6,893 bases of DNA from an uncultured archaeon (GCA_964565125.1 CAZMCX010000041.1:1-6893), one strand, 5' to 3'. Positions 1 to 6,893 are shown, numbered from the stretch's first letter. The notes: generated by a model not told the origin, from the letters alone. Program-made: numbers and translations.

Positions 1-162
1 ATCAAATGTTGCTTTTGGTGGTTCTTCCGTTGGAATAGATTCTTTAGGTTTTACAAGTGGTTCCTCTGTTTTTGGAACTAAAGGCTCTTCTGGGATAGGG
101 GGAGATGTAGTCTCAGGAGGGATTCCCGGTTCTGGGGTTGTTGTTTCAGGAGTTACAGTTGA
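1..162 (-). other. Pro/Thr/Glu-rich extended linker (aa 2236-2289 and beyond). The ORF continues past the window.
   Basis: The translation is STVTPETTTPEPGIPPETTSPPIPEEPLVPKTEEPLVKPKESIPTEEPPKATFD, with 15 Pro in 54 aa by hand count. It contains an imperfect EEPLVPK / EEPLVKPK repeat. Confidence 0.8.
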
Positions 163-3100
163 TTTTGCCTTTCTCAAAGATAACAATACAGCTGCTAATC
201 CTTGTTCTTCTTTCTGATCCCAAACTCCTTCTTTTCCTGCTTCTACAAATGATTGTTCTTCTTTCATTTGTGCAATGTCATCTTCTATACTAGAATAATC
301 TTCTAATCCCAAAATTGTTCCCAAAATTGGTACTGATGCTATACCATCATGAACTGAATCTGTCCAATTCTTTTCAGATATTCCTGCTTTTGCATTCACT
401 CTGTGGGCTTGATAGTATTCTGTACCAACATTAATACCCATAAATATTCCACAGTCTAATGCTGCGCCAGCCCACCCAATTGGACCTAAAAATTTCAAAA
501 TCCATTTTTCTGTAACCAGACATGCAGTCATTCCTGCTGCTGTTGCTGCACCAAGTTTTGTTGGGTCTGTTGCATTACTAGTTAAAGCTGCAACAACACT
601 TTTTTGCTGTAATGGACAATCAGGATAATATATATTTGCATATTTCTTTGTTCCTTTAAAGTCTACATCAAATATACTTTTTTCACCTAGTTGTGGGCCT
701 TCTTTTACAAAGTTTGTAAAAAGTTCACAAGTATTCCTGCTCTCCACACCTTTTTCATAAATCAAAGCATATTCTTTGAAGTCTTTTTCATTTTTTCCAA
801 TATCAACCATTAATGCATTTACAAATGTTTGTGCGGTTATTCCACAGTCTGCATCAAATGCAATTCTTATTGGTTCTGTTTTAATTCCTTCTCTTTCCGC
901 ATAATAGAATAACCCAGAGCTATCACTGTTTGCTCCAGAGTTAACTTTGAATGCATCAGTTATTTCAACATTTATTTTTGCTTTTCCAACGCTTTTATTT
1001 CCTTCTTTAGTAAGCTCTATTGTTTTATTTGTCTGTCCTTTAGAATCAAAGTACGCTTCTAAGCCAGTATCTGCAGGGTAAATCAAAAATAAATCAACTC
1101 TTCCAAGAGATTGTGACTCTACAGTAATATCACAATGCCAAGTTCCTTTTCCTAATGGCAATTTACTACAAATACCGATTTTTATATCTCCTGCAGTAAT
1201 GTCTTTTTCACCGGGTTGCTTAGTTTTCCCGCTTAAACCACCGGTTCCAGATTTTACTTTTGCAGAATTTGGGACACCTTCGCCTGTGTTAACAATACAA
1301 CCATCAAAGTTTCCGTTTAAGAAACCAGTTATTGCTTTTACAACATCTTTTTGTATGGCTTCGTTTCCAATATCTAAATTTTTATTTATTTTTACAGTAA
1401 TTATTACATCGGTTCCATTTTGTTTTATACTAAATTCAACTAAGTTTCCTTCTGCAACAGAATCTCTTTTCAAAAACAAGGTGTTAGGTTTTGATTTCAA
1501 AAATCTATCTTGGTTAAATATTTGTTTCGAAACATCTTGTGCAATTGATTCTAAATCCATAGAATCATAATCCACATAACCTACACGCAATCCCAAAGGA
1601 TTATCTTTTTTTGTTTGTGCATCTTTTGGCAAATAATTCAATGCATTTTGAACTTTTAATTCACATTGGGATGTTTTTTCTTTTTTCAAAACTTGAACAT
1701 ACATATTGTAGCTGTCTTTTTGTATGATATCATTATTAATTACTTGCACCGCACCCGTGATTCTCAAACTATATTTTCCACAACCATCAAGTTGTTTATC
1801 TAAATACAATCTTTTTGTCCAGGTAGATGTTACTTCGGTTAACTCTATTCCATCTGTTATTGCGGTTTCTATTAAGCCCGTGTTAATTTTTTTCAAATCA
1901 TTATCCATCTGGGCTTGTGTTAATTTGTCATTTGTAAAATATACATTCAACTCTAATGCCTCTAAACCAAAGTCTTCAAATGAACAAGATGCAGATCCAA
2001 CTTCGCAATTTGTATTTTCTAATTTATTATTTATTGTTGTCAATTTTTTCTTATATACTTCCAAATAATATTTTATTTTTGCAATCAAAAATTTGGACAT
2101 TGATTCACTATCGCAATAGCCCATTGTAGAACAATCTGCAGTTGTGATTCTTGGGTAAAACACAGATAATTCATTTCCAGTAACACAATCTTTTATTTGT
2201 TTCTGATCTGTAACTGTTGCTTCGCCAGTCCCAGTCAATGCCCCGCCACCAAATCTCAAATTAACTAATAATGGAATATTAAACGGACCTTGGCTTACAC
2301 CCAAAACACCTTTAACAAATAAGGTATTATCTCTTGAAATTTCCTTACTTGCAGTTATTGTTAAAATAAATTCTTTTTCTTGCCCCAATTCAATTGTTGT
2401 CCCATTTGGCGCAGATAAAACTGTTTTGTTTCCAAATAATTCTGCTTCACTTACCCCTGTTATTGATACTGCTTCCGCACAATTATTTACTAAAGTAAAG
2501 GACCTTGCAATTTCTTTTCCAAAAGTTTCGCTTATGTAAGTCAATTTATTTTCTGGTTTTGTTCCCTTTTTTACAGTAATACATTTATCTGGAGAAACAT
2601 GTATTACAAGATATCCGTTCGCAGATATTTGTTGATTAATTCCTTGTATTGTTCCTCTTGCTTGTATCCCATAATATTGTTCTGTTTGCTTTGAGGTAGA
2701 TGGCATGTTAATATATCCTTGAAGCATTGTTGCCTGTCCCGGTGCCAAAACTTGAATTGTTGATGGCATAAAATTAATTGCACTTCCGCCAGAAGCATAA
2801 CTTCCATAAGCTGGGCTATTATAAATGCTTGAATGCGGATCAACATAATTTCCAGGATTTGCATATTGATCTTGTGTTAATCCCGATTGATAAGTAAAGG
2901 CATCAACACCCTTATTATTTACACTAGAATTATATCCTGGTTGATTATATCTGGAATTATTTAGCTGGCTATAACTATTCAAAAAATTCTGGCCAGTATT
3001 TGTGGCATAATTGTATGGCTGCATCTGGTATCTATTACTGGAAGCCATTACCTGGATATTATGTATTGGCATTCTTCCATTGTTCTGTATTATTACTGGA

Positions 3101-6100
3101 ACATATTGGCCTTGCATCTCTTTAAACGCAGACACAAATATATGCCCCGCAGTAAGTATAGATAAAGAACTTGCTGCATTCCAAATTGTAATATTTAAAG
3201 GTATATTTTTTGTAAAATAATCTGTTGCCAAATACAATGATAATACTTTTGTTTCATCAGCCATTATTACTGGAGTCAAATTCACCAATGTAAACTTTAT
3301 TGATTTTTCTTCTCCTTTTTTCAAATCAAATCCTTGCATGTTCAACTGCAAGCCATAATTTGACGCATCATCTGAAACCATTTGCGGTGTAACTTTCAAA
3401 TCATATTCACAATTATTTCTAAATAAAATACTATCTTCTATTTTTGCATTTTGTACAGCCGGCAAACTATAAATTAATGCTTCTTTACTTGCCCACAAAC
3501 AACTTGTGTTCTTTATTTCTTTATTATAATAAACAAATACTTTTGTTTTTATTTTTGTAATTTCATTTTTATTCTGAACCCCAACTATTTCTAATTCTAC
3601 AACCCCGTTTTCTCTTTCTTCGTCGCCGTTATAAGAGCCAGTTACTACTAACTCTGCAACACCATTTGCAGCAATAAATCCAGTAACCATTTTTGCACTT
3701 ATTAAAAAGTTAGAACTCAAATTAGAACTTACTATATTCACAGACATTGATTCAACTGGAAGCTTTGTTTTATTCTGAACAGATATTTTTACAGTTCCGT
3801 GTTTTGCATTTTTTGGAATTATTAAATCATTATCGCTTTTAACATACAACGCACCAACATTTCCAAGCAAAATTTCTAATTCTGTTGGCAAGTACCCTGG
3901 AACGCTTACAGAAACTAAATAAAACCCGCTTGTAAAACTATTCTTTATCAAATATCTACCATCTTTTCCAAAGTCTACTTTTCCTGTGCCTTCAACAAAC
4001 ACAACACTCTTTTTTGTTTTTTTATCTGAAATTGTAATCTTCGCATTTGTTAAATAATTTCCGCCTTTTTCTTTAACTATTATTGGAAAATCTTCTCCAA
4101 GAGGAATAAAATCACCATTTAAAATTACTTCCATTTCTTTTTTAGGGAAAATAGTTACCGAAATATTTTTCTCAATTACGCCCTTTGAGGTAATTGTTTT
4201 TACCGCAATATTTGTAAGTCCTTCTTTAAACGGATTAAAATAAAATCTTACTTTCTTTTTTTCCATTGATGCCATATCTACAAAAACATTTTGCTTTGTG
4301 TTCTTTTCATCTTTGGGGGAAAACTCTGTTGGGCTTTCCGCATAATTATTTAGATAAAGTTTAGGGGTATCTTCTGTCTGAACTGACAAAGAAATTTGTT
4401 GTTCAATAATAGAAGTTAATTCTAAATCCAATGCATAATAATAATCCAACACACCATTAAACTTCCCAACATCATATGTAAACTGGTCATCTAAGATTGT
4501 GTATGAAATACAAACATCATTCTGACAATTCAATGATCCAGCCATTAACTGAACTTCTTTTAAGTAAGTATCAGCATACAAACCATATTTTATTGGGATG
4601 TTTTCATTTGCGCCCAGCATAGAATCTACTGGATTTCTTATGAAATTTGTATCTTCTTGTGTCCAAGCCCTATATCTTATTTCCATCGCATTCAAATCTG
4701 TTGTTGCTTTTGATTTTACTCTTACTTTTAAATTACTGTTTCCCGCGGGATTTGTGAAATATAATTCAAGCCATTTGTTGAATTGGCCCGCAACACCAGT
4801 AGAATAATAATCTACAGAATAATCCCCTGGCATAGGCAGAGGGGAATAGCTAATTCCATATTTGAAATTATCTGCAACACCATCAAACCCAATAATGCCC
4901 ACATCTTGATTTGCAACATATTTTTCATTATCTGAACCCAATCTTATATGTAAGCCGCCAGAATACAAACCCTCTGGCCAAAACAAATTAAATACTAACA
5001 AATAAGTTTTTCCTTTTTGCATTGCGCTAACTTCTTTTCCGTCTACATCGGTTATCTTTGATAAAGAAACAAATAATTTATCTTTATTTTTATTATCAGC
5101 CAATTTTATTTGCATTTTATCTTTTGGATTTATTGTCTGTGAGTACGTGTTTCCATTTTCATCAGTAACAAACATATCTAATTCTTTGTTTCCTAATGAA
5201 TCTGCCTCAATTTTTCCCATCAAATCTGTGTATCCATCATAAACTAAATTTCCTTGCTTATCAAAAAGCATAACATGTGCGTTTGTCAATGGTTTTCCGT
5301 ATTTGTCGTATAAATACATTGTAAATTTACTGCCTGCGTTTTCCATCTTTATCTCAATTCTATTTCTTCCAGCTTTCAACAATAAGGATGCCTCACCATA
5401 TTCCTCATCAGTATTTGCAGATACAGATAAAGTAATATTTGGTTTTAAATTTAAAGTAAAATATCCAGTTATAGAAGTTATTGGATTGGGGCCTGTTATT
5501 GGATAAAATTCCCCATTTGCGTCATATTTAAATTCCAAAGTTGCATTCCCAACTGGTTTATTATCTTTATCAACAACAAACACATCAACTATTGCTGCTT
5601 TTGTAAGATCTACTTTTTCCATTTCAAATTTCATTTCTGAAGAACTGTCCAATAATTTTGTTTGTGGATAATATCCGTCTTTATACACAGAAATATATTT
5701 TAAAATTGTATAGTCCAACCCTGAAAAACTAGTTGTTCCGCCAATATCTGTATTTTCTGTCAACTGTTCAATAAGCATTGTAGTGTATAATGAAACTTTT
5801 GCCTCTTGGATTCCAACACCCAAAGAGTCAAGCACACTTACATTTAATTTTCCGCCACCAACAGACATAATAAAAGAAATTACTTCTTCGTCTGTCAATA
5901 AAGTTCTTAAAATTCCTTCAACATTAGAGTCAAATACAGCAAAGCCATCTTTTTGCGCAACAAATCTTACTGATGTTCCTTTTTTTACAGAAAATATCGC
6001 AATTCCATCTTCATTTGTGTTTGTGCTTCCAATTTTTGTATTGGACTTTATATTATAAACATCAATTTTCACATTATTCAAAGCGTTCTGTATTACATCT

Positions 6101-6867
6101 TTTACAACAAATTTAAAAGATCCATCCTCGCTCGGATCAAACTCTTTAGGACTAAGTTCAAAGATATAATTCTTGTTTTCAATTAACTCAACTGACTTTG
6201 TATACTGTTCATATCCATCTTTATCAATAGCTAAATTAACTTTCTTCAAAGGCAGCACAGCATCAAAACCACCATACTCATCTGTAGTTCCTTCAACTAG
6301 CAATTCATCGTCATCATAAATAGACAACTTTGCACTTCCCACAGTGGTTTGCGCTTTACCATTAATTACTTTAAAAGTTATTTTTCCAGTTTGTTCTTGT
6401 TTTTCAAAAATCAATGATACTTGCATTTCCTTTCCAGAAATTGGCAACTCTGAGGGGGCTGTGAAAATATACCCTTCCAAAGTAGAATTAAAAAATAATG
6501 AATCCCCAACTCCAATTCCTTTAATCTCTATTTGTGTTCCATTCTGCACTTGCTCAGACAACAATATCGTGCCATCTAATTTAGAAATGTTTAAAAAAAC
6601 TGAACTTGGAGTTATTCCATCATCGGTCATTATAGATAAATTCAAGGTTACGCTTGAGGCAAATACAATAGTTACTAGTAAAACAATTACAGCTATAATT
6701 AGGGCAATAATCAAAATTGTAAACCACATTGCAGGGATTCCTTTTTCTTCCAAAAAGTCAGAGTATTTTTGTGCAGGAATGCCTTTCTCATCCAAAAAAG
6801 CTACTAGGCTATCAAAACCAGCAGTCATTTTTTCGTTTATTTTCCCAAAAAATTCGCCTAAACCCAT
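1..6867 (-). CDS. Giant membrane-anchored surface/adhesin-like protein. The 5' end is complete and the 3' end is truncated by the window edge, giving at least 2,289 aa in the window.
   Basis: Splitting the plus strand into triplets from position 1, I found no tta, cta or tca triplet (minus-strand TAA/TAG/TGA) between 1 and 6885. The first in-frame stop upstream is tta at 6886-6888. The ATG is 'cat' at 6865-6867, preceded by AGGTG. The translation has coherent protein features: a TM helix, repeated beta-sandwich motifs and linkers. Positions 1-3 form a complete codon (GAT) and the frame stays open at the edge. Confidence 0.93.
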   Translation of the reverse strand, partial: MGLGEFFGKINEKMTAGFDSLVAFLDEKGIPAQKYSDFLEEKGIPAMWFTILIIALIIAVIVLLVTIVFASSVTLNLSIMTDDGITPSSVFLNISKLDGTILLSEQVQNGTQIEIKGIGVGDSLFFNSTLEGYIFTAPSELPISGKEMQVSLIFEKQEQTGKITFKVINGKAQTTVGSAKLSIYDDDELLVEGTTDEYGGFDAVLPLKKVNLAIDKDGYEQYTKSVELIENKNYIFELSPKEFDPSEDGSFKFVVKDVIQNALNNVKIDVYNIKSNTKIGSTNTNEDGIAIFSVKKGTSVRFVAQKDGFAVFDSNVEGILRTLLTDEEVISFIMSVGGGKLNVSVLDSLGVGIQEAKVSLYTTMLIEQLTENTDIGGTTSFSGLDYTILKYISVYKDGYYPQTKLLDSSSEMKFEMEKVDLTKAAIVDVFVVDKDNKPVGNATLEFKYDANGEFYPITGPNPITSITGYFTLNLKPNITLSVSANTDEEYGEASLLLKAGRNRIEIKMENAGSKFTMYLYDKYGKPLTNAHVMLFDKQGNLVYDGYTDLMGKIEADSLGNKELDMFVTDENGNTYSQTINPKDKMQIKLADNKNKDKLFVSLSKITDVDGKEVSAMQKGKTYLLVFNLFWPEGLYSGGLHIRLGSDNEKYVANQDVGIIGFDGVADNFKYGISYSPLPMPGDYSVDYYSTGVAGQFNKWLELYFTNPAGNSNLKVRVKSKATTDLNAMEIRYRAWTQEDTNFIRNPVDSMLGANENIPIKYGLYADTYLKEVQLMAGSLNCQNDVCISYTILDDQFTYDVGKFNGVLDYYYALDLELTSIIEQQISLSVQTEDTPKLYLNNYAESPTEFSPKDEKNTKQNVFVDMASMEKKKVRFYFNPFKEGLTNIAVKTITSKGVIEKNISVTIFPKKEMEVILNGDFIPLGEDFPIIVKEKGGNYLTNAKITISDKKTKKSVVFVEGTGKVDFGKDGRYLIKNSFTSGFYLVSVSVPGYLPTELEILLGNVGALYVKSDNDLIIPKNAKHGTVKISVQNKTKLPVESMSVNIVSSNLSSNFLISAKMVTGFIAANGVAELVVTGSYNGDEERENGVVELEIVGVQNKNEITKIKTKVFVYYNKEIKNTSCLWASKEALIYSLPAVQNAKIEDSILFRNNCEYDLKVTPQMVSDDASNYGLQLNMQGFDLKKGEEKSIKFTLVNLTPVIMADETKVLSLYLATDYFTKNIPLNITIWNAASSLSILTAGHIFVSAFKEMQGQYVPVIIQNNGRMPIHNIQVMASSNRYQMQPYNYATNTGQNFLNSYSQLNNSRYNQPGYNSSVNNKGVDAFTYQSGLTQDQYANPGNYVDPHSSIYNSPAYGSYASGGSAINFMPSTIQVLAPGQATMLQGYINMPSTSKQTEQYYGIQARGTIQGINQQISANGYLVIHVSPDKCITVKKGTKPENKLTYISETFGKEIARSFTLVNNCAEAVSITGVSEAELFGNKTVLSAPNGTTIELGQEKEFILTITASKEISRDNTLFVKGVLGVSQGPFNIPLLVNLRFGGGALTGTGEATVTDQKQIKDCVTGNELSVFYPRITTADCSTMGYCDSESMSKFLIAKIKYYLEVYKKKLTTINNKLENTNCEVGSASCSFEDFGLEALELNVYFTNDKLTQAQMDNDLKKINTGLIETAITDGIELTEVTSTWTKRLYLDKQLDGCGKYSLRITGAVQVINNDIIQKDSYNMYVQVLKKEKTSQCELKVQNALNYLPKDAQTKKDNPLGLRVGYVDYDSMDLESIAQDVSKQIFNQDRFLKSKPNTLFLKRDSVAEGNLVEFSIKQNGTDVIITVKINKNLDIGNEAIQKDVVKAITGFLNGNFDGCIVNTGEGVPNSAKVKSGTGGLSGKTKQPGEKDITAGDIKIGICSKLPLGKGTWHCDITVESQSLGRVDLFLIYPADTGLEAYFDSKGQTNKTIELTKEGNKSVGKAKINVEITDAFKVNSGANSDSSGLFYYAEREGIKTEPIRIAFDADCGITAQTFVNALMVDIGKNEKDFKEYALIYEKGVESRNTCELFTNFVKEGPQLGEKSIFDVDFKGTKKYANIYYPDCPLQQKSVVAALTSNATDPTKLGAATAAGMTACLVTEKWILKFLGPIGWAGAALDCGIFMGINVGTEYYQAHRVNAKAGISEKNWTDSVHDGIASVPILGTILGLEDYSSIEDDIAQMKEEQSFVEAGKEGVWDQKEEQGLAAVLLSLRKAKSTVTPETTTPEPGIPPETTSPPIPEEPLVPKTEEPLVKPKESIPTEEPPKATFD
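424..555 (-). other. Gly/Ala-rich hydrophobic segment with a GxxxGxxxG glycine-zipper (aa 2105-2148). It may be membrane-interacting.
   Basis: The translation is LGAATAAGMTACLVTEKWILKFLGPIGWAGAALDCGIFMGINVG. Two small-residue-rich hydrophobic stretches are separated by TEKWILK. GIFMGINVG is a GxxxGxxxG motif. Confidence 0.4.
451..2187 (-). other. Cysteine-rich distal ectodomain region of unknown fold (aa 1561-2139)
   Basis: In-frame aca/gca triplets (minus-strand TGT/TGC) number 15 in this region, 6 in aa 781-1560 and none in aa 1-780. The sequence includes DCVTGNELSVFYPRITTADCSTMGYCDSE, NTNCEVGSASCSFEDFG, LDGCGKYSLRITG, IGICSKLPLGKGTWHCDITV, FDADCGITAQTF and YYPDCPLQQK. I see no catalytic motif (no HExxH and no true P-loop). 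Confidence 0.5.
2251..3816 (-). other. About four Ig-like modules of the CARDB/NEW3/DUF11 style (aa ~1018-1539)
   Basis: Recurrent strand patterns are typical of these prokaryotic surface Ig-like domains: GTVKISVQNKTKLPVESMSVNIV...GVAELVVTG, IEDSILFRNNCEYDLKVTP...GEEKSIKFTLVN, QYVPVIIQNNGRMPIHNIQVMAS...IQVLAPGQATMLQGYINMP and IARSFTLVNNCAEAVSITGV...TIELGQEKEFILTITA. Approximate module bounds are 3526-3816, 3178-3501, 2587-3177 and 2251-2586. Confidence 0.4.
2629..3048 (-). repeat. N/Q/Y/S-rich low-complexity (prion-like composition) segment, aa 1274-1413, with its core at aa 1274-1363 (nt 2779-3048)
   Basis: The translation is MASSNRYQMQPYNYATNTGQNFLNSYSQLNNSRYNQPGYNSSVNNKGVDAFTYQSGLTQDQYANPGNYVDPHSSIYNSPAYGSYASGGSAINFMPSTIQVLAPGQATMLQGYINMPSTSKQTEQYYGIQARGTIQGINQQ. 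By hand count, 49 of the first 90 residues are N, Q, Y or S, with no Glu and only 3 basic residues. The rest of the protein is K/E/D-rich. Confidence 0.8.
3865..4134 (-). other. Seventh, isolated CarboxypepD_reg/PEGA-like beta-sandwich domain (aa 912-1001)
   Basis: The translation is MEVILNGDFIPLGEDFPIIVKEKGGNYLTNAKITISDKKTKKSVVFVEGTGKVDFGKDGRYLIKNSFTSGFYLVSVSVPGYLPTELEILL. The G-x-Y-x-[LV]-x-V-x-x-x-G-Y tail is the classic signature of this fold family. Confidence 0.6.
4135..5100 (-). other. Unassigned aromatic-rich, probably beta-rich globular region (aa 590-911). It contains a C-x4-C pair.
   Basis: The translation includes ...KGKTYLLVFNLFWPEGLYSGGLHIRLGSDNEKYVANQDVGIIGFDGVADNFKYGISYSPLPMPGDYSVDYYSTGVAGQFNKWLELYFTNPAGNSNLKVRVKS...LNCQNDVCISYTILDD.... 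I recognise no motif. The first cysteines of the protein occur here, at 4510-4527. Confidence 0.3.
5101..6657 (-). repeat. Six divergent tandem beta-sandwich repeats of about 80-90 aa, transthyretin-like (CarboxypepD_reg/PEGA-type), aa 71-589
   Basis: Approximate repeat starts are 6657, 6390, 6126, 5859, 5601 and 5334. A recurring pattern is G-x-[ILF]-x-[FV]-x-V-x-D...A-x-[VIL]-x-[LVI]-[YF]...T-[DN]-x-x-G-x-[FA]...K-D-G-[YF]. Examples are TDEYGGFDAV...DKDGYEQYTKSVEL, TNEDGIAIFSV...QKDGFAVFDS, YKDGYYPQTKLL and YDKYGKPLTNAHVMLFD...TDLMGKIE. Similarity exists at the protein-motif level only, with no obvious nucleotide repeat. Confidence 0.65.
6658..6729 (-). other. Single transmembrane helix (probable signal-anchor), aa 47-70
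   Basis: The translation MWFTILIIALIIAVIVLLVTIVFA is 24 consecutive uncharged, mostly aliphatic residues. It is preceded by a 46-aa charged tail, which is too long for a classical signal-peptide n-region. Confidence 0.8.
6730..6798 (-). repeat. Duplicated 9-aa motif FLDEKGIPA / FLEEKGIPA with a 14-aa (42-nt) period, in the N-terminal tail just before the TM helix
   Basis: Translation of aa 24-46 is FLDEKGIPAQKYSDFLEEKGIPA. Copy 1 is at 6798-6772 and copy 2 at 6756-6730. The second copy abuts the hydrophobic segment. Confidence 0.7.
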
Positions 6868-6874
6868 AAAATCA

Positions 6875-6880
6875 CACCTT
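6875..6880 (-). promoter_or_regulatory. Shine-Dalgarno ribosome-binding site (AAGGTG) for the giant ORF
   Basis: The minus strand reads ...ATATAAGGTGTGATTTTATGGGT. AGGTG lies 7 nt upstream of the ATG and is complementary to the conserved 3' end of 16S rRNA (CACCT). Confidence 0.6.
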
Positions 6881-6893
6881 ATATTTTATTGGG

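Follow-up and report, generated by a model that had tools for sequence, protein, structure and literature searches.

The window analyzed here, a stretch of 6,893 nt from an uncultured archaeon (GCA_964565125.1, CAZMCX010000041.1:1-6893), covers the first 6.87 kb, at the 5′ end, of a single chromosomal gene that belongs to an uncultivated DPANN archaeon in the phylum Iainarchaeota. Its product is a conserved, strongly selected protein of predicted length around 3,000 aa, which we interpret as a giant surface protein, anchored N-terminally, that would attack bacterial peptidoglycan with its distal end, as a tool for attachment to another cell or access to it (probability roughly 0.72). At least in part of the family, the protein probably works within a dedicated pilus-like surface apparatus. 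It is a concrete candidate host- or prey-interaction factor for Iainarchaeota, above all since its nearest full-length counterparts have a lytic transglycosylase and an esterase or amidase at their ends; such ends point to bacteria, not archaea, as partners.

The Window Contains the 5′ Part of a Single Giant Gene

The initial annotation had described the window as one minus-strand open reading frame (ORF) of 2,289 codons, starting at an ATG preceded by a Shine-Dalgarno sequence, and re-translation found no in-frame stop from 6867 to 1. Of the six translated frames, the minus-strand one that is in phase with plus-strand triplets counted from base 1 has only one stop, a TAA close to the right-hand end of the window, below which 2,295 codons without a stop reach base 1. 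The first ATG of this frame, at 6867, opens 2,289 stop-free codons (6,867 nt), and a Shine-Dalgarno-like AGGTG can be read directly in the sequence 7 nt 5′ of it. Orthologs share the start methionine (MGLGEFFGKINEKM...). The frame is open at the window edge, and the gene is incomplete, as had been proposed, with its 3′ end beyond base 1.

The other five frames hold 68–215 stops, and the longest open run among them is 191 codons. Among 500 sequences shuffled at the same base composition, the longest open run of any frame came to 104 codons on average and 189 at most, and the base composition gives a probability of approximately 1e-90 for 2,295 codons without a stop; the earlier dismissal of chance is borne out by these figures. 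The ORF list of the window holds seven ORFs only, all of 123 aa or less. The giant ORF is missing from it because the list omits ORFs that run off an end; both the short ORFs and this reason for the omission had been pointed out before, correctly according to the list's own specification. When edge-truncated ORFs are dropped in this manner, windows such as this one look non-coding. The small plus-strand ORFs are entirely antisense to the giant gene. The plus-strand antisense frame at offset 1 has 68 stops and the 191-codon open run, versus 124–215 stops in the other non-coding frames. A low stop count of this kind commonly shadows a coding frame that is AT-rich and strongly biased, and it explains the plus-strand ORFs of 114–123 aa in the list. 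No tRNA, Rfam family or tandem DNA repeat was detected in the window.

Strong purifying selection marks the ORF as a genuine gene. The ratio of nonsynonymous to synonymous substitution rates (dN/dS) is 0.077 over 1,330 codons against an ortholog of 88% amino-acid identity (L005, “Candidatus ainarchaeum sp.” isolate STB_43), and 0.217 over 2,254 codons against a homolog of 63% identity (locus L004, protein P0001). The GC content by codon position is 42/35/21%. A short contig of 1.1 kb (L039; ENA ERZ27293414 k141_1291156, 1-1134) is 99.4% identical to positions 5800-6893 of the window and reaches only 13 nt further upstream. ENA assemblies of the series that includes ERZ27293414 and ERZ27248961 contain contigs nearly identical or related to the window. 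In L039, codon 73 is changed from Ser to an in-frame stop, at which gene callers split the frame into products of 75 and 283 aa, and its Shine-Dalgarno region differs from that of the window (ATGTGATGTG vs TAAGGTGTG). The stop could stem from a sequencing error, the contig being short and of low coverage, or it could mark a pseudogenised strain variant. This near-identical contig speaks for regarding the long open frame as an artefact, that is, a chance ORF, an assembly chimera or a pseudogene without a functional gene behind it. Such an artefact is very improbable, given the stop-free probability and the shuffles, the dN/dS against the 88% ortholog, and collinear full-length homologs in 35 species and approximately 150 protein clusters; in addition, the window lacks the tandem DNA repeats that would favour misassembly.

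The nearest relatives, at 88 and 63% identity (above), are metagenome-assembled genomes (MAGs) labelled Candidatus Iainarchaeum or “archaeon,” and all relatives found in the GTDB genome scan are at most 88% identical to the window. JGI metagenome contigs were scanned for an exact 42-mer and for a protein pattern, and neither scan gave a match to it. The 63% homolog lies in an archaeal chromosome directly upstream of rpoH-rpoB′′-rpoB′-rpoA′-rpoA′′-L7Ae-S12-S7, and is itself preceded by genes for S15, S3Ae and MgtE, which also lie upstream of the 88% ortholog. Synteny with the RNA polymerase operon was considered as a feature of the family and rejected, as it is present in the nearest relative only.

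The Closest Full-Length Relatives End in Peptidoglycan-Degrading Domains

The closest full-length homolog is P0001 (3,457 aa). After a Pro-rich linker equivalent to the one at which the window ends, a region of about 440 aa in P0001 is rich in Ala, Glu and Lys and probably helical. It is followed by a weak hydrophobic segment, then by SLT and GDSL/SGNH domains, and the protein closes with a short C-terminal domain. Both enzymatic domains score above the Pfam cut-offs (SLT 47.9 bits vs 21.3; GDSL 49.2 vs 32.9). The SLT domain contains the motifs ...KSESGFN, GLGQ and AAYNMG, which we take to be the signatures of family-1 lytic transglycosylases (ES / GLGQ / AYNxG) in intact form, and the esterase has the motif GDSL. 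P0061 and P0084 likewise combine SLT with GDSL, and P0107 combines SLT with Amidase_2. A neighbor-joining tree built on the conserved core places the window protein in one group with P0001, P0061, P0084 and P0070.

Because the closest full-length relatives of the same clade carry both domains, phylogenetic bracketing suggests that the missing part of the window protein, of 0.6–1.15 thousand residues, would include an SLT lytic transglycosylase and a GDSL/SGNH esterase, for a predicted full length of approximately 2,900–3,460 aa. Lytic transglycosylases need a free C6 hydroxyl on N-acetylmuramic acid (MurNAc), and Ape-type SGNH O-acetyl-peptidoglycan esterases provide one. The pairing is biochemically sensible, since the esterase would free the MurNAc hydroxyl that the transglycosylase needs.

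A different C-terminal domain, of about 140 aa, is found in approximately 30 members (alignment A8). It aligns with the SLT regions of the family with an hhalign probability of 84% (E 7e-6); one member weakly matches the Glucosaminidase family, and the profile weakly matches MltC. Judged by these comparisons the domain looks like a degenerate SLT/lysozyme-like domain, and may be a glycan-binding pseudo-enzyme. The position of the catalytic Glu is usually occupied by Lys in this domain (VPEALLVtvaIWKs), of which aa 2638-2777 of P0019 are one example.

Domain Organization of the Window Protein

The features of the window protein, numbered from the ATG, are listed in Table 1 with those of the gene neighborhood. 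The conserved N-terminal head has the family consensus “..Y.K.EDKYY..LDFL..KGIPVY.Y.DFLE.KGIP.FP” and contains five invariant residues (K28, G29, G43, I44, and P45). It has no Pfam or NCBIfam match, and a search of protein databases with the head returned short fragments only. The head is followed by the sole strong transmembrane helix; with a hydropathy threshold of 1.6, the next-best hydrophobic segment of the window protein reaches 1.35 versus 3.64 for this helix. Beyond the membrane anchor extends a stalk of immunoglobulin (Ig)-fold domains, in which Pfam detects CarboxypepD_reg (PF13620) in three stretches (60.8 bits vs a cut-off of 32.3) and iterative jackhmmer searches resolve seven repeats.

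Table 1. Features of the window and genes neighboring the family locus in distant members.
Feature	Position	Strand	Basis or occurrence
Pro/Thr/Glu-rich linker, aa 2236-2289, window end	1..162	-	composition; P0001 equivalent
Coding sequence, 2,289 codons from ATG 6867, gene 3′ end missing	1..6867	-	translation, dN/dS, shuffles
Gly/Ala-rich helical segment, aa 2089-2208	244..603	-	AlphaFold2 helices at low pLDDT; hydropathy 1.35
Further β-sandwich and small α/β module of conserved core, aa 1865-2085	613..1275	-	AlphaFold2, family profile
Family-defining Cys-rich α/β core, aa 1554-1864	1276..2208	-	pLDDT 85-94
β-sandwich region, aa 1385-1545	2233..2715	-	AlphaFold2 model
S/N/G/Q/Y-rich low-complexity linker, aa 1291-1384	2716..2997	-	composition, ortholog comparison
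Conserved region of unknown fold, conserved N..C motifs, aa 1008-1290	2998..3846	-	family alignments
Seventh CarboxypepD_reg domain, aa 926-1007	3847..4092	-	Pfam, jackhmmer, PDB-sequence profile search
Family-specific module, aa 600-925	4093..5070	-	GGLHIRLGSD ... KWLELYF ... RYRAW, conserved Cys781/Cys786
Six tandem ~85-aa CarboxypepD_reg/prealbumin-like Ig-fold repeats, first weak, aa 74-596	5080..6648	-	Pfam, jackhmmer
Sole strong transmembrane helix, aa 47-69	6661..6729	-	Kyte-Doolittle 3.64 over aa 51-69
Conserved N-terminal head with duplicated [D/E]-x-KGIP motif, aa 1-45	6733..6867	-	family alignment
Shine-Dalgarno-like AGGTG	6875..6879	-	sequence reading
Upstream in-frame stop TAA, 5′ bound of open frame	6886..6888	-	six-frame translation
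~190-aa exosortase/archaeosortase-family protein	usually directly upstream	same	18/28 loci
~765-aa T2SSE ATPase (FlaI/TadA-like)	upstream	divergent	15/28 loci
~775-aa T2SSF-like membrane protein	upstream	divergent	9/28 loci
Small class-III-signal pilins (NQKGQAF...)	upstream	divergent	8/28 loci
470-570-aa modular pilin, N-terminus KG/F[TN][LM]F[TS]A (slash, putative cleavage site)	downstream		17/28 loci
Second giant protein	further downstream		14/28 loci

The stalk is interrupted before its last domain by a family-specific module, which also occurs in a second giant paralog. Neither this module nor the conserved region of aa 1008-1290 has a Pfam or PDB sequence relative, and profile searches of PDB sequences with the core (alignment A5) and the middle region (A10) retrieved nothing except CarboxypepD_reg. 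The low-complexity linker that follows differs in length and sequence even between the orthologs of 88 and 63% identity, and may be a flexible or prion-like linker.

We modeled aa 1385-2235 with AlphaFold2 from a 28-sequence alignment, with a mean predicted local distance difference test score (pLDDT) of 71; a run with five sequences (pLDDT 48) was unusable. Foldseek searches of the whole model against PDB and BFVD found only generic Ig, ASH, PapD-like, MG and BACON β-sandwiches, at a TMq of 0.15 or less. The Cys-rich core at the center of the model contains the invariant motifs DCxxGYCD, GCGxY and ECxxxIxN, and neither Foldseek (PDB and BFVD) nor PDB-sequence profile searches gave an informative structural or sequence match for it. 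In the Gly/Ala-rich segment, a GxxxGxxxG glycine zipper (GIFMGINVG) occurs together with PILGTILG and a DCG motif that is conserved. Hydrophobic yet below the transmembrane threshold, the segment may be a membrane-inserting element. An NCBIfam scan of the window protein gave only a sub-threshold match to NikL (30 bits vs a cut-off of 100), taken to be generic β-sandwich similarity, and a PHROG scan matched no family.

Extent of the Family

Scanning the species genomes of GTDB with a degenerate pattern identified 35 loci, mostly in Iainarchaeota and a few in Micrarchaeota, whose complete genes encode 2,400–4,538 aa. An exhaustive hidden Markov model search with the core profile against 1.84 billion cluster representatives identified 150 proteins, 124 of them at E < 1e-30; the approximately 150 clusters of the family are counted at 50% identity. 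Nearly all of the 150 proteins are 2,400–3,400 aa long, with the core at about aa 1,330-2,150. On this sequence evidence the family is coherent, narrowly distributed and of one architecture.

Two records lie at the margins of this distribution. In a MAG labelled Pacearchaeota (L040, 10001-10288; JGI 3300014204 / NCBI), a KGIP head begins a gene that is cut by the contig end (P0162). The head, or the whole family, may extend to Pacearchaeota, the lineage of the first-described giant SLT proteins. A further family member is found on a 2.7-kb contig (L027, CAYMPQ010000114.1) binned as “uncultured Actinomycetota bacterium,” which is most likely a binning error; alternatively, it could hint that the archaeon and an actinobacterial population physically occur together.

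A Pilus-Like Gene Cluster Surrounds the Gene in Distant Family Members

Clustering of the neighboring genes covered 28 loci and revealed a conserved cluster around the gene in distant members of the family (Table 1), with instances at L012 1394-25384, L016 2569-25867, L006 2717-25242 and L041 2360-20330, the last of which is an independent example. The archaeosortase-family protein scores 35–45 bits on the TIGR04178 signature, versus a cut-off of 23. The second giant has the head, the Ig array and the module of aa 600-870 in common with the window protein, and is without the core. The nearest relatives have a different neighborhood, yet an archaeosortase-like gene is still found 8–10 kb upstream.

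None of the 82 full-length members has a C-terminal archaeosortase sorting signal (motif, transmembrane helix, basic tail) or a hydrophobic C-terminus. The identity of the protein as an exosortase/archaeosortase substrate is thus unsupported in these members; the C-terminus of the window protein itself lies beyond the window edge.

Several mobile or accessory elements were observed in the clusters. An intein interrupts the T2SSE ATPase at L041 4778-7678, where a PF14890 match lies between two T2SSE matches. At L012 3132-4373, a TnpB/Cas12f1-like (OrfB_IS605) gene is inserted and separates the pilin genes from the platform gene. In the MAG of L041, the cluster with the giant gene is flanked by several toxin-antitoxin pairs (MazE/PIN, PemK), at 1191-1779, 8415-9067 and 18664-19214.

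Proposed Function and Alternative Explanations

In the function that we propose, the N-terminal helix would anchor the protein in the archaeal membrane, and the Ig-domain stalk and linkers would push the distal part, predicted to be extracellular, past the cell envelope. The enzymatic tip would then cut the glycan strands of bacterial peptidoglycan, the SGNH esterase first stripping the O-acetyl groups that block lytic transglycosylases. The outcome would be attachment to a bacterial partner or prey, or access to its contents, possibly for feeding. The initial annotation had suggested a surface or host-interaction protein. The surface part of this suggestion fits the membrane anchor, the Ig-like array and the hydrolase ends of the relatives; the host role is deduced from those relatives.

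Several observations weigh against this proposal. The window stops before any enzymatic domain, and the peptidoglycan-degrading tip is seen in relatives, not in this gene. The C-terminal tails vary, with a Pfam-detectable SLT domain in about 8 of the 82 full-length members, and some 30 others end in the divergent SLT-like domain, in which the position of the catalytic Glu is mostly occupied by Lys. The gene of the nearest relatives does not adjoin the pilus-like cluster. Finally, the weakly hydrophobic segment of P0001 (aa 2783-2801), just before the SLT domain, is topologically puzzling: were it a true transmembrane helix, the enzymes would be on the cytoplasmic side.

In a structural interpretation, the protein would be an S-layer or sheath component or the membrane stalk of one, and any SLT-like tail would be a binding or vestigial module in place of an attack enzyme. 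The C-terminal SLT-like domain of most members is indeed degenerate and without the catalytic Glu, and an N-terminal membrane anchor with a long Ig-like array would suit an envelope protein. The gene is also present in most of the sampled Iainarchaeota species under strong purifying selection, and is surrounded by housekeeping genes in the nearest relatives. We nevertheless regard a purely structural role as unlikely, as the clade of the window protein retains canonical catalytic motifs together with a second hydrolase (GDSL or amidase). Moreover, no S-layer domain of Pfam or NCBIfam (e.g., PF05123) was detected in the window protein, its N-glycosylation sequons are not enriched (22 observed vs 21.6 ± 3.8 expected), and the characterised S-layer protein of Micrarchaeota is a different, 101-kDa protein with a PF05123-like domain. 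The conserved synteny with the T2SSE ATPase, the T2SSF platform, class-III-signal pilins and the 470-570-aa pilin speaks for a giant modular type-IV-pilin-like protein. Here KG/IP and the helix would form a long class III signal cleaved by prepilin peptidase, and the protein would sit in, or at the tip of, a pilus built by the neighboring ATPase and platform, with its distal domains held away from the cell. Only a few residues separate K42-G43 from the hydrophobic helix. A class III leader is short, variable and basic; that of the giant would be acidic, 43 aa in length and strongly conserved, duplicated KGIP included, and a Pro at +2 is atypical. With the pilus cluster also not adjoining the gene in the nearest relatives, a pilin identity seems to us improbable. 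Both of these interpretations are partly compatible with a peptidoglycan-attacking surface protein.

An origin from a virus or mobile element, for instance as a tail fibre or a tape-measure-like protein with a lytic domain, was also considered: SLT, a helical region and hydrophobic segments together resemble phage tape-measure proteins and VirB1-type proteins of type IV secretion systems, and tail proteins are among the Foldseek matches in BFVD. These matches have a TMq of 0.13 or less and apparently stem from generic Ig/BACON-type β-sandwiches, and no PHROG family was matched. The relatives have archaeal chromosomal surroundings, with the RNA polymerase operon and ribosomal protein genes as neighbors, and one lies in a complete chromosome of 1.05 Mb (CP064981.1), so that a viral origin is extremely improbable.

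A more far-reaching form of the peptidoglycan-attack proposal, which we consider speculative and rather doubtful as a whole, is that Iainarchaeota and Micrarchaeota possess an undescribed contact-dependent organelle. It would consist of two paralogous giants, alike in their conserved KGIP head and the transmembrane helix behind it, and of a dedicated short archaeosortase-family enzyme and a type-IV-pilus-like set that sort or assemble them, and the giant encoded here would deliver peptidoglycan-cleaving enzymes to bacteria. If so, the KGIP head would be a new N-terminal sorting or assembly signal, and Iainarchaeota would be episymbionts or predators of bacteria.

Comparison With Known Giant Surface Proteins

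The kind of protein is already known, namely large DPANN proteins with murein transglycosylase domains. Extracellular proteins of up to approximately 3,000 aa with murein-like lytic transglycosylase domains are described from Pacearchaeota and Woesearchaeota (PMC8204110), from Woesearchaeota MAGs, where they were taken as evidence that bacteria are preyed upon (Vigneron et al., 2022, PMC9723730), and from DPANN MAGs of oxygen-deficient zones (PMC10936187). The last of these also summarises the suggestion that Iainarchaeota are possibly free-living. A gene of more than 6.9 kb, called unusual for a prokaryote in the initial annotation, is therefore rare, but by the first two reports not unprecedented in DPANN archaea.

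The window family shares with the proteins of PMC8204110 a DPANN source, a length of thousands of residues, a predicted extracellular location and a proposed role in binding or degrading bacterial walls; the SLT/GH23 domain is present in the closest full-length relatives (P0001, P0061, and P0084). The window protein itself, with at least 2,289 aa, a single N-terminal transmembrane helix and Ig-like domains, agrees with them in size and topology. In contrast to the fam00969 lineages, the window family occurs in Iainarchaeota and Micrarchaeota, a distinction made by lineage. It further differs in that SLT is paired with a GDSL/SGNH esterase or an amidase, in that the protein consists largely of a family-specific core, with a conserved KGIP head, and in the pilus-like/archaeosortase-family cluster around its distant members, an association not seen in the accessible text of PMC8204110, PMC9723730 and PMC10936187. 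In open-access full text we found no report of the Iainarchaeota/Micrarchaeota family, the KGIP head or the Cys-rich core, nor of a pairing of SLT with an SGNH esterase or amidase, or a linkage to archaeosortase-family or pilus-like genes, in such proteins. With approximately 150 clusters, about 1,300 aa of uncharacterised conserved modules, the conserved head and the pilus-like/archaeosortase-family linkage, the family offers several experimental handles.

SPEARE proteins of Nanohaloarchaeota are reportedly membrane-associated proteins of more than 5,000 aa from a DPANN episymbiont, said to be proposed to act in host attachment and envelope breaching. They reportedly contain serine protease, adhesion and restriction-endonuclease-type domains, and the hosts are archaeal. 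Both they and the window protein are giant membrane-associated surface proteins of DPANN lineages, whereas the lytic domains of the relatives of the window protein would aim at peptidoglycan. Domains of the SPEARE type had no Pfam match in the window protein, P0001, P0003 or P0004.

Giant cell-wall-degrading proteins are also described for predatory Omnitrophota bacteria in a preprint (bioRxiv 10.1101/2023.11.21.568195). Likened here by description only, they have in common with the window family very long genes in ultrasmall uncultivated prokaryotes, a putative part in breaking down the wall of another cell, and assembly fragmentation that hides the genes from callers; they differ, by the same account, in being bacterial and an order of magnitude larger.

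Modular type IV pilins and other class III proteins resemble the window protein in the K-G followed by a hydrophobic helix, and the distant family members in their type-IV-pilus-like neighbors. The conserved pre-helix head of 43 aa, the Pro at +2 and the far larger size set the window protein apart. Finally, bacterial Ig-repeat adhesins and macroglobulin-like proteins (CarboxypepD_reg, bMG3, Big_1, SdrD_B) have a comparable stalk of tandem prealbumin/Ig-like β-sandwiches. Unlike these, the window protein has an N-terminal transmembrane helix in place of an LPXTG or lipobox anchor, an archaeal host, and a large Cys-rich core that is not part of a repeat.

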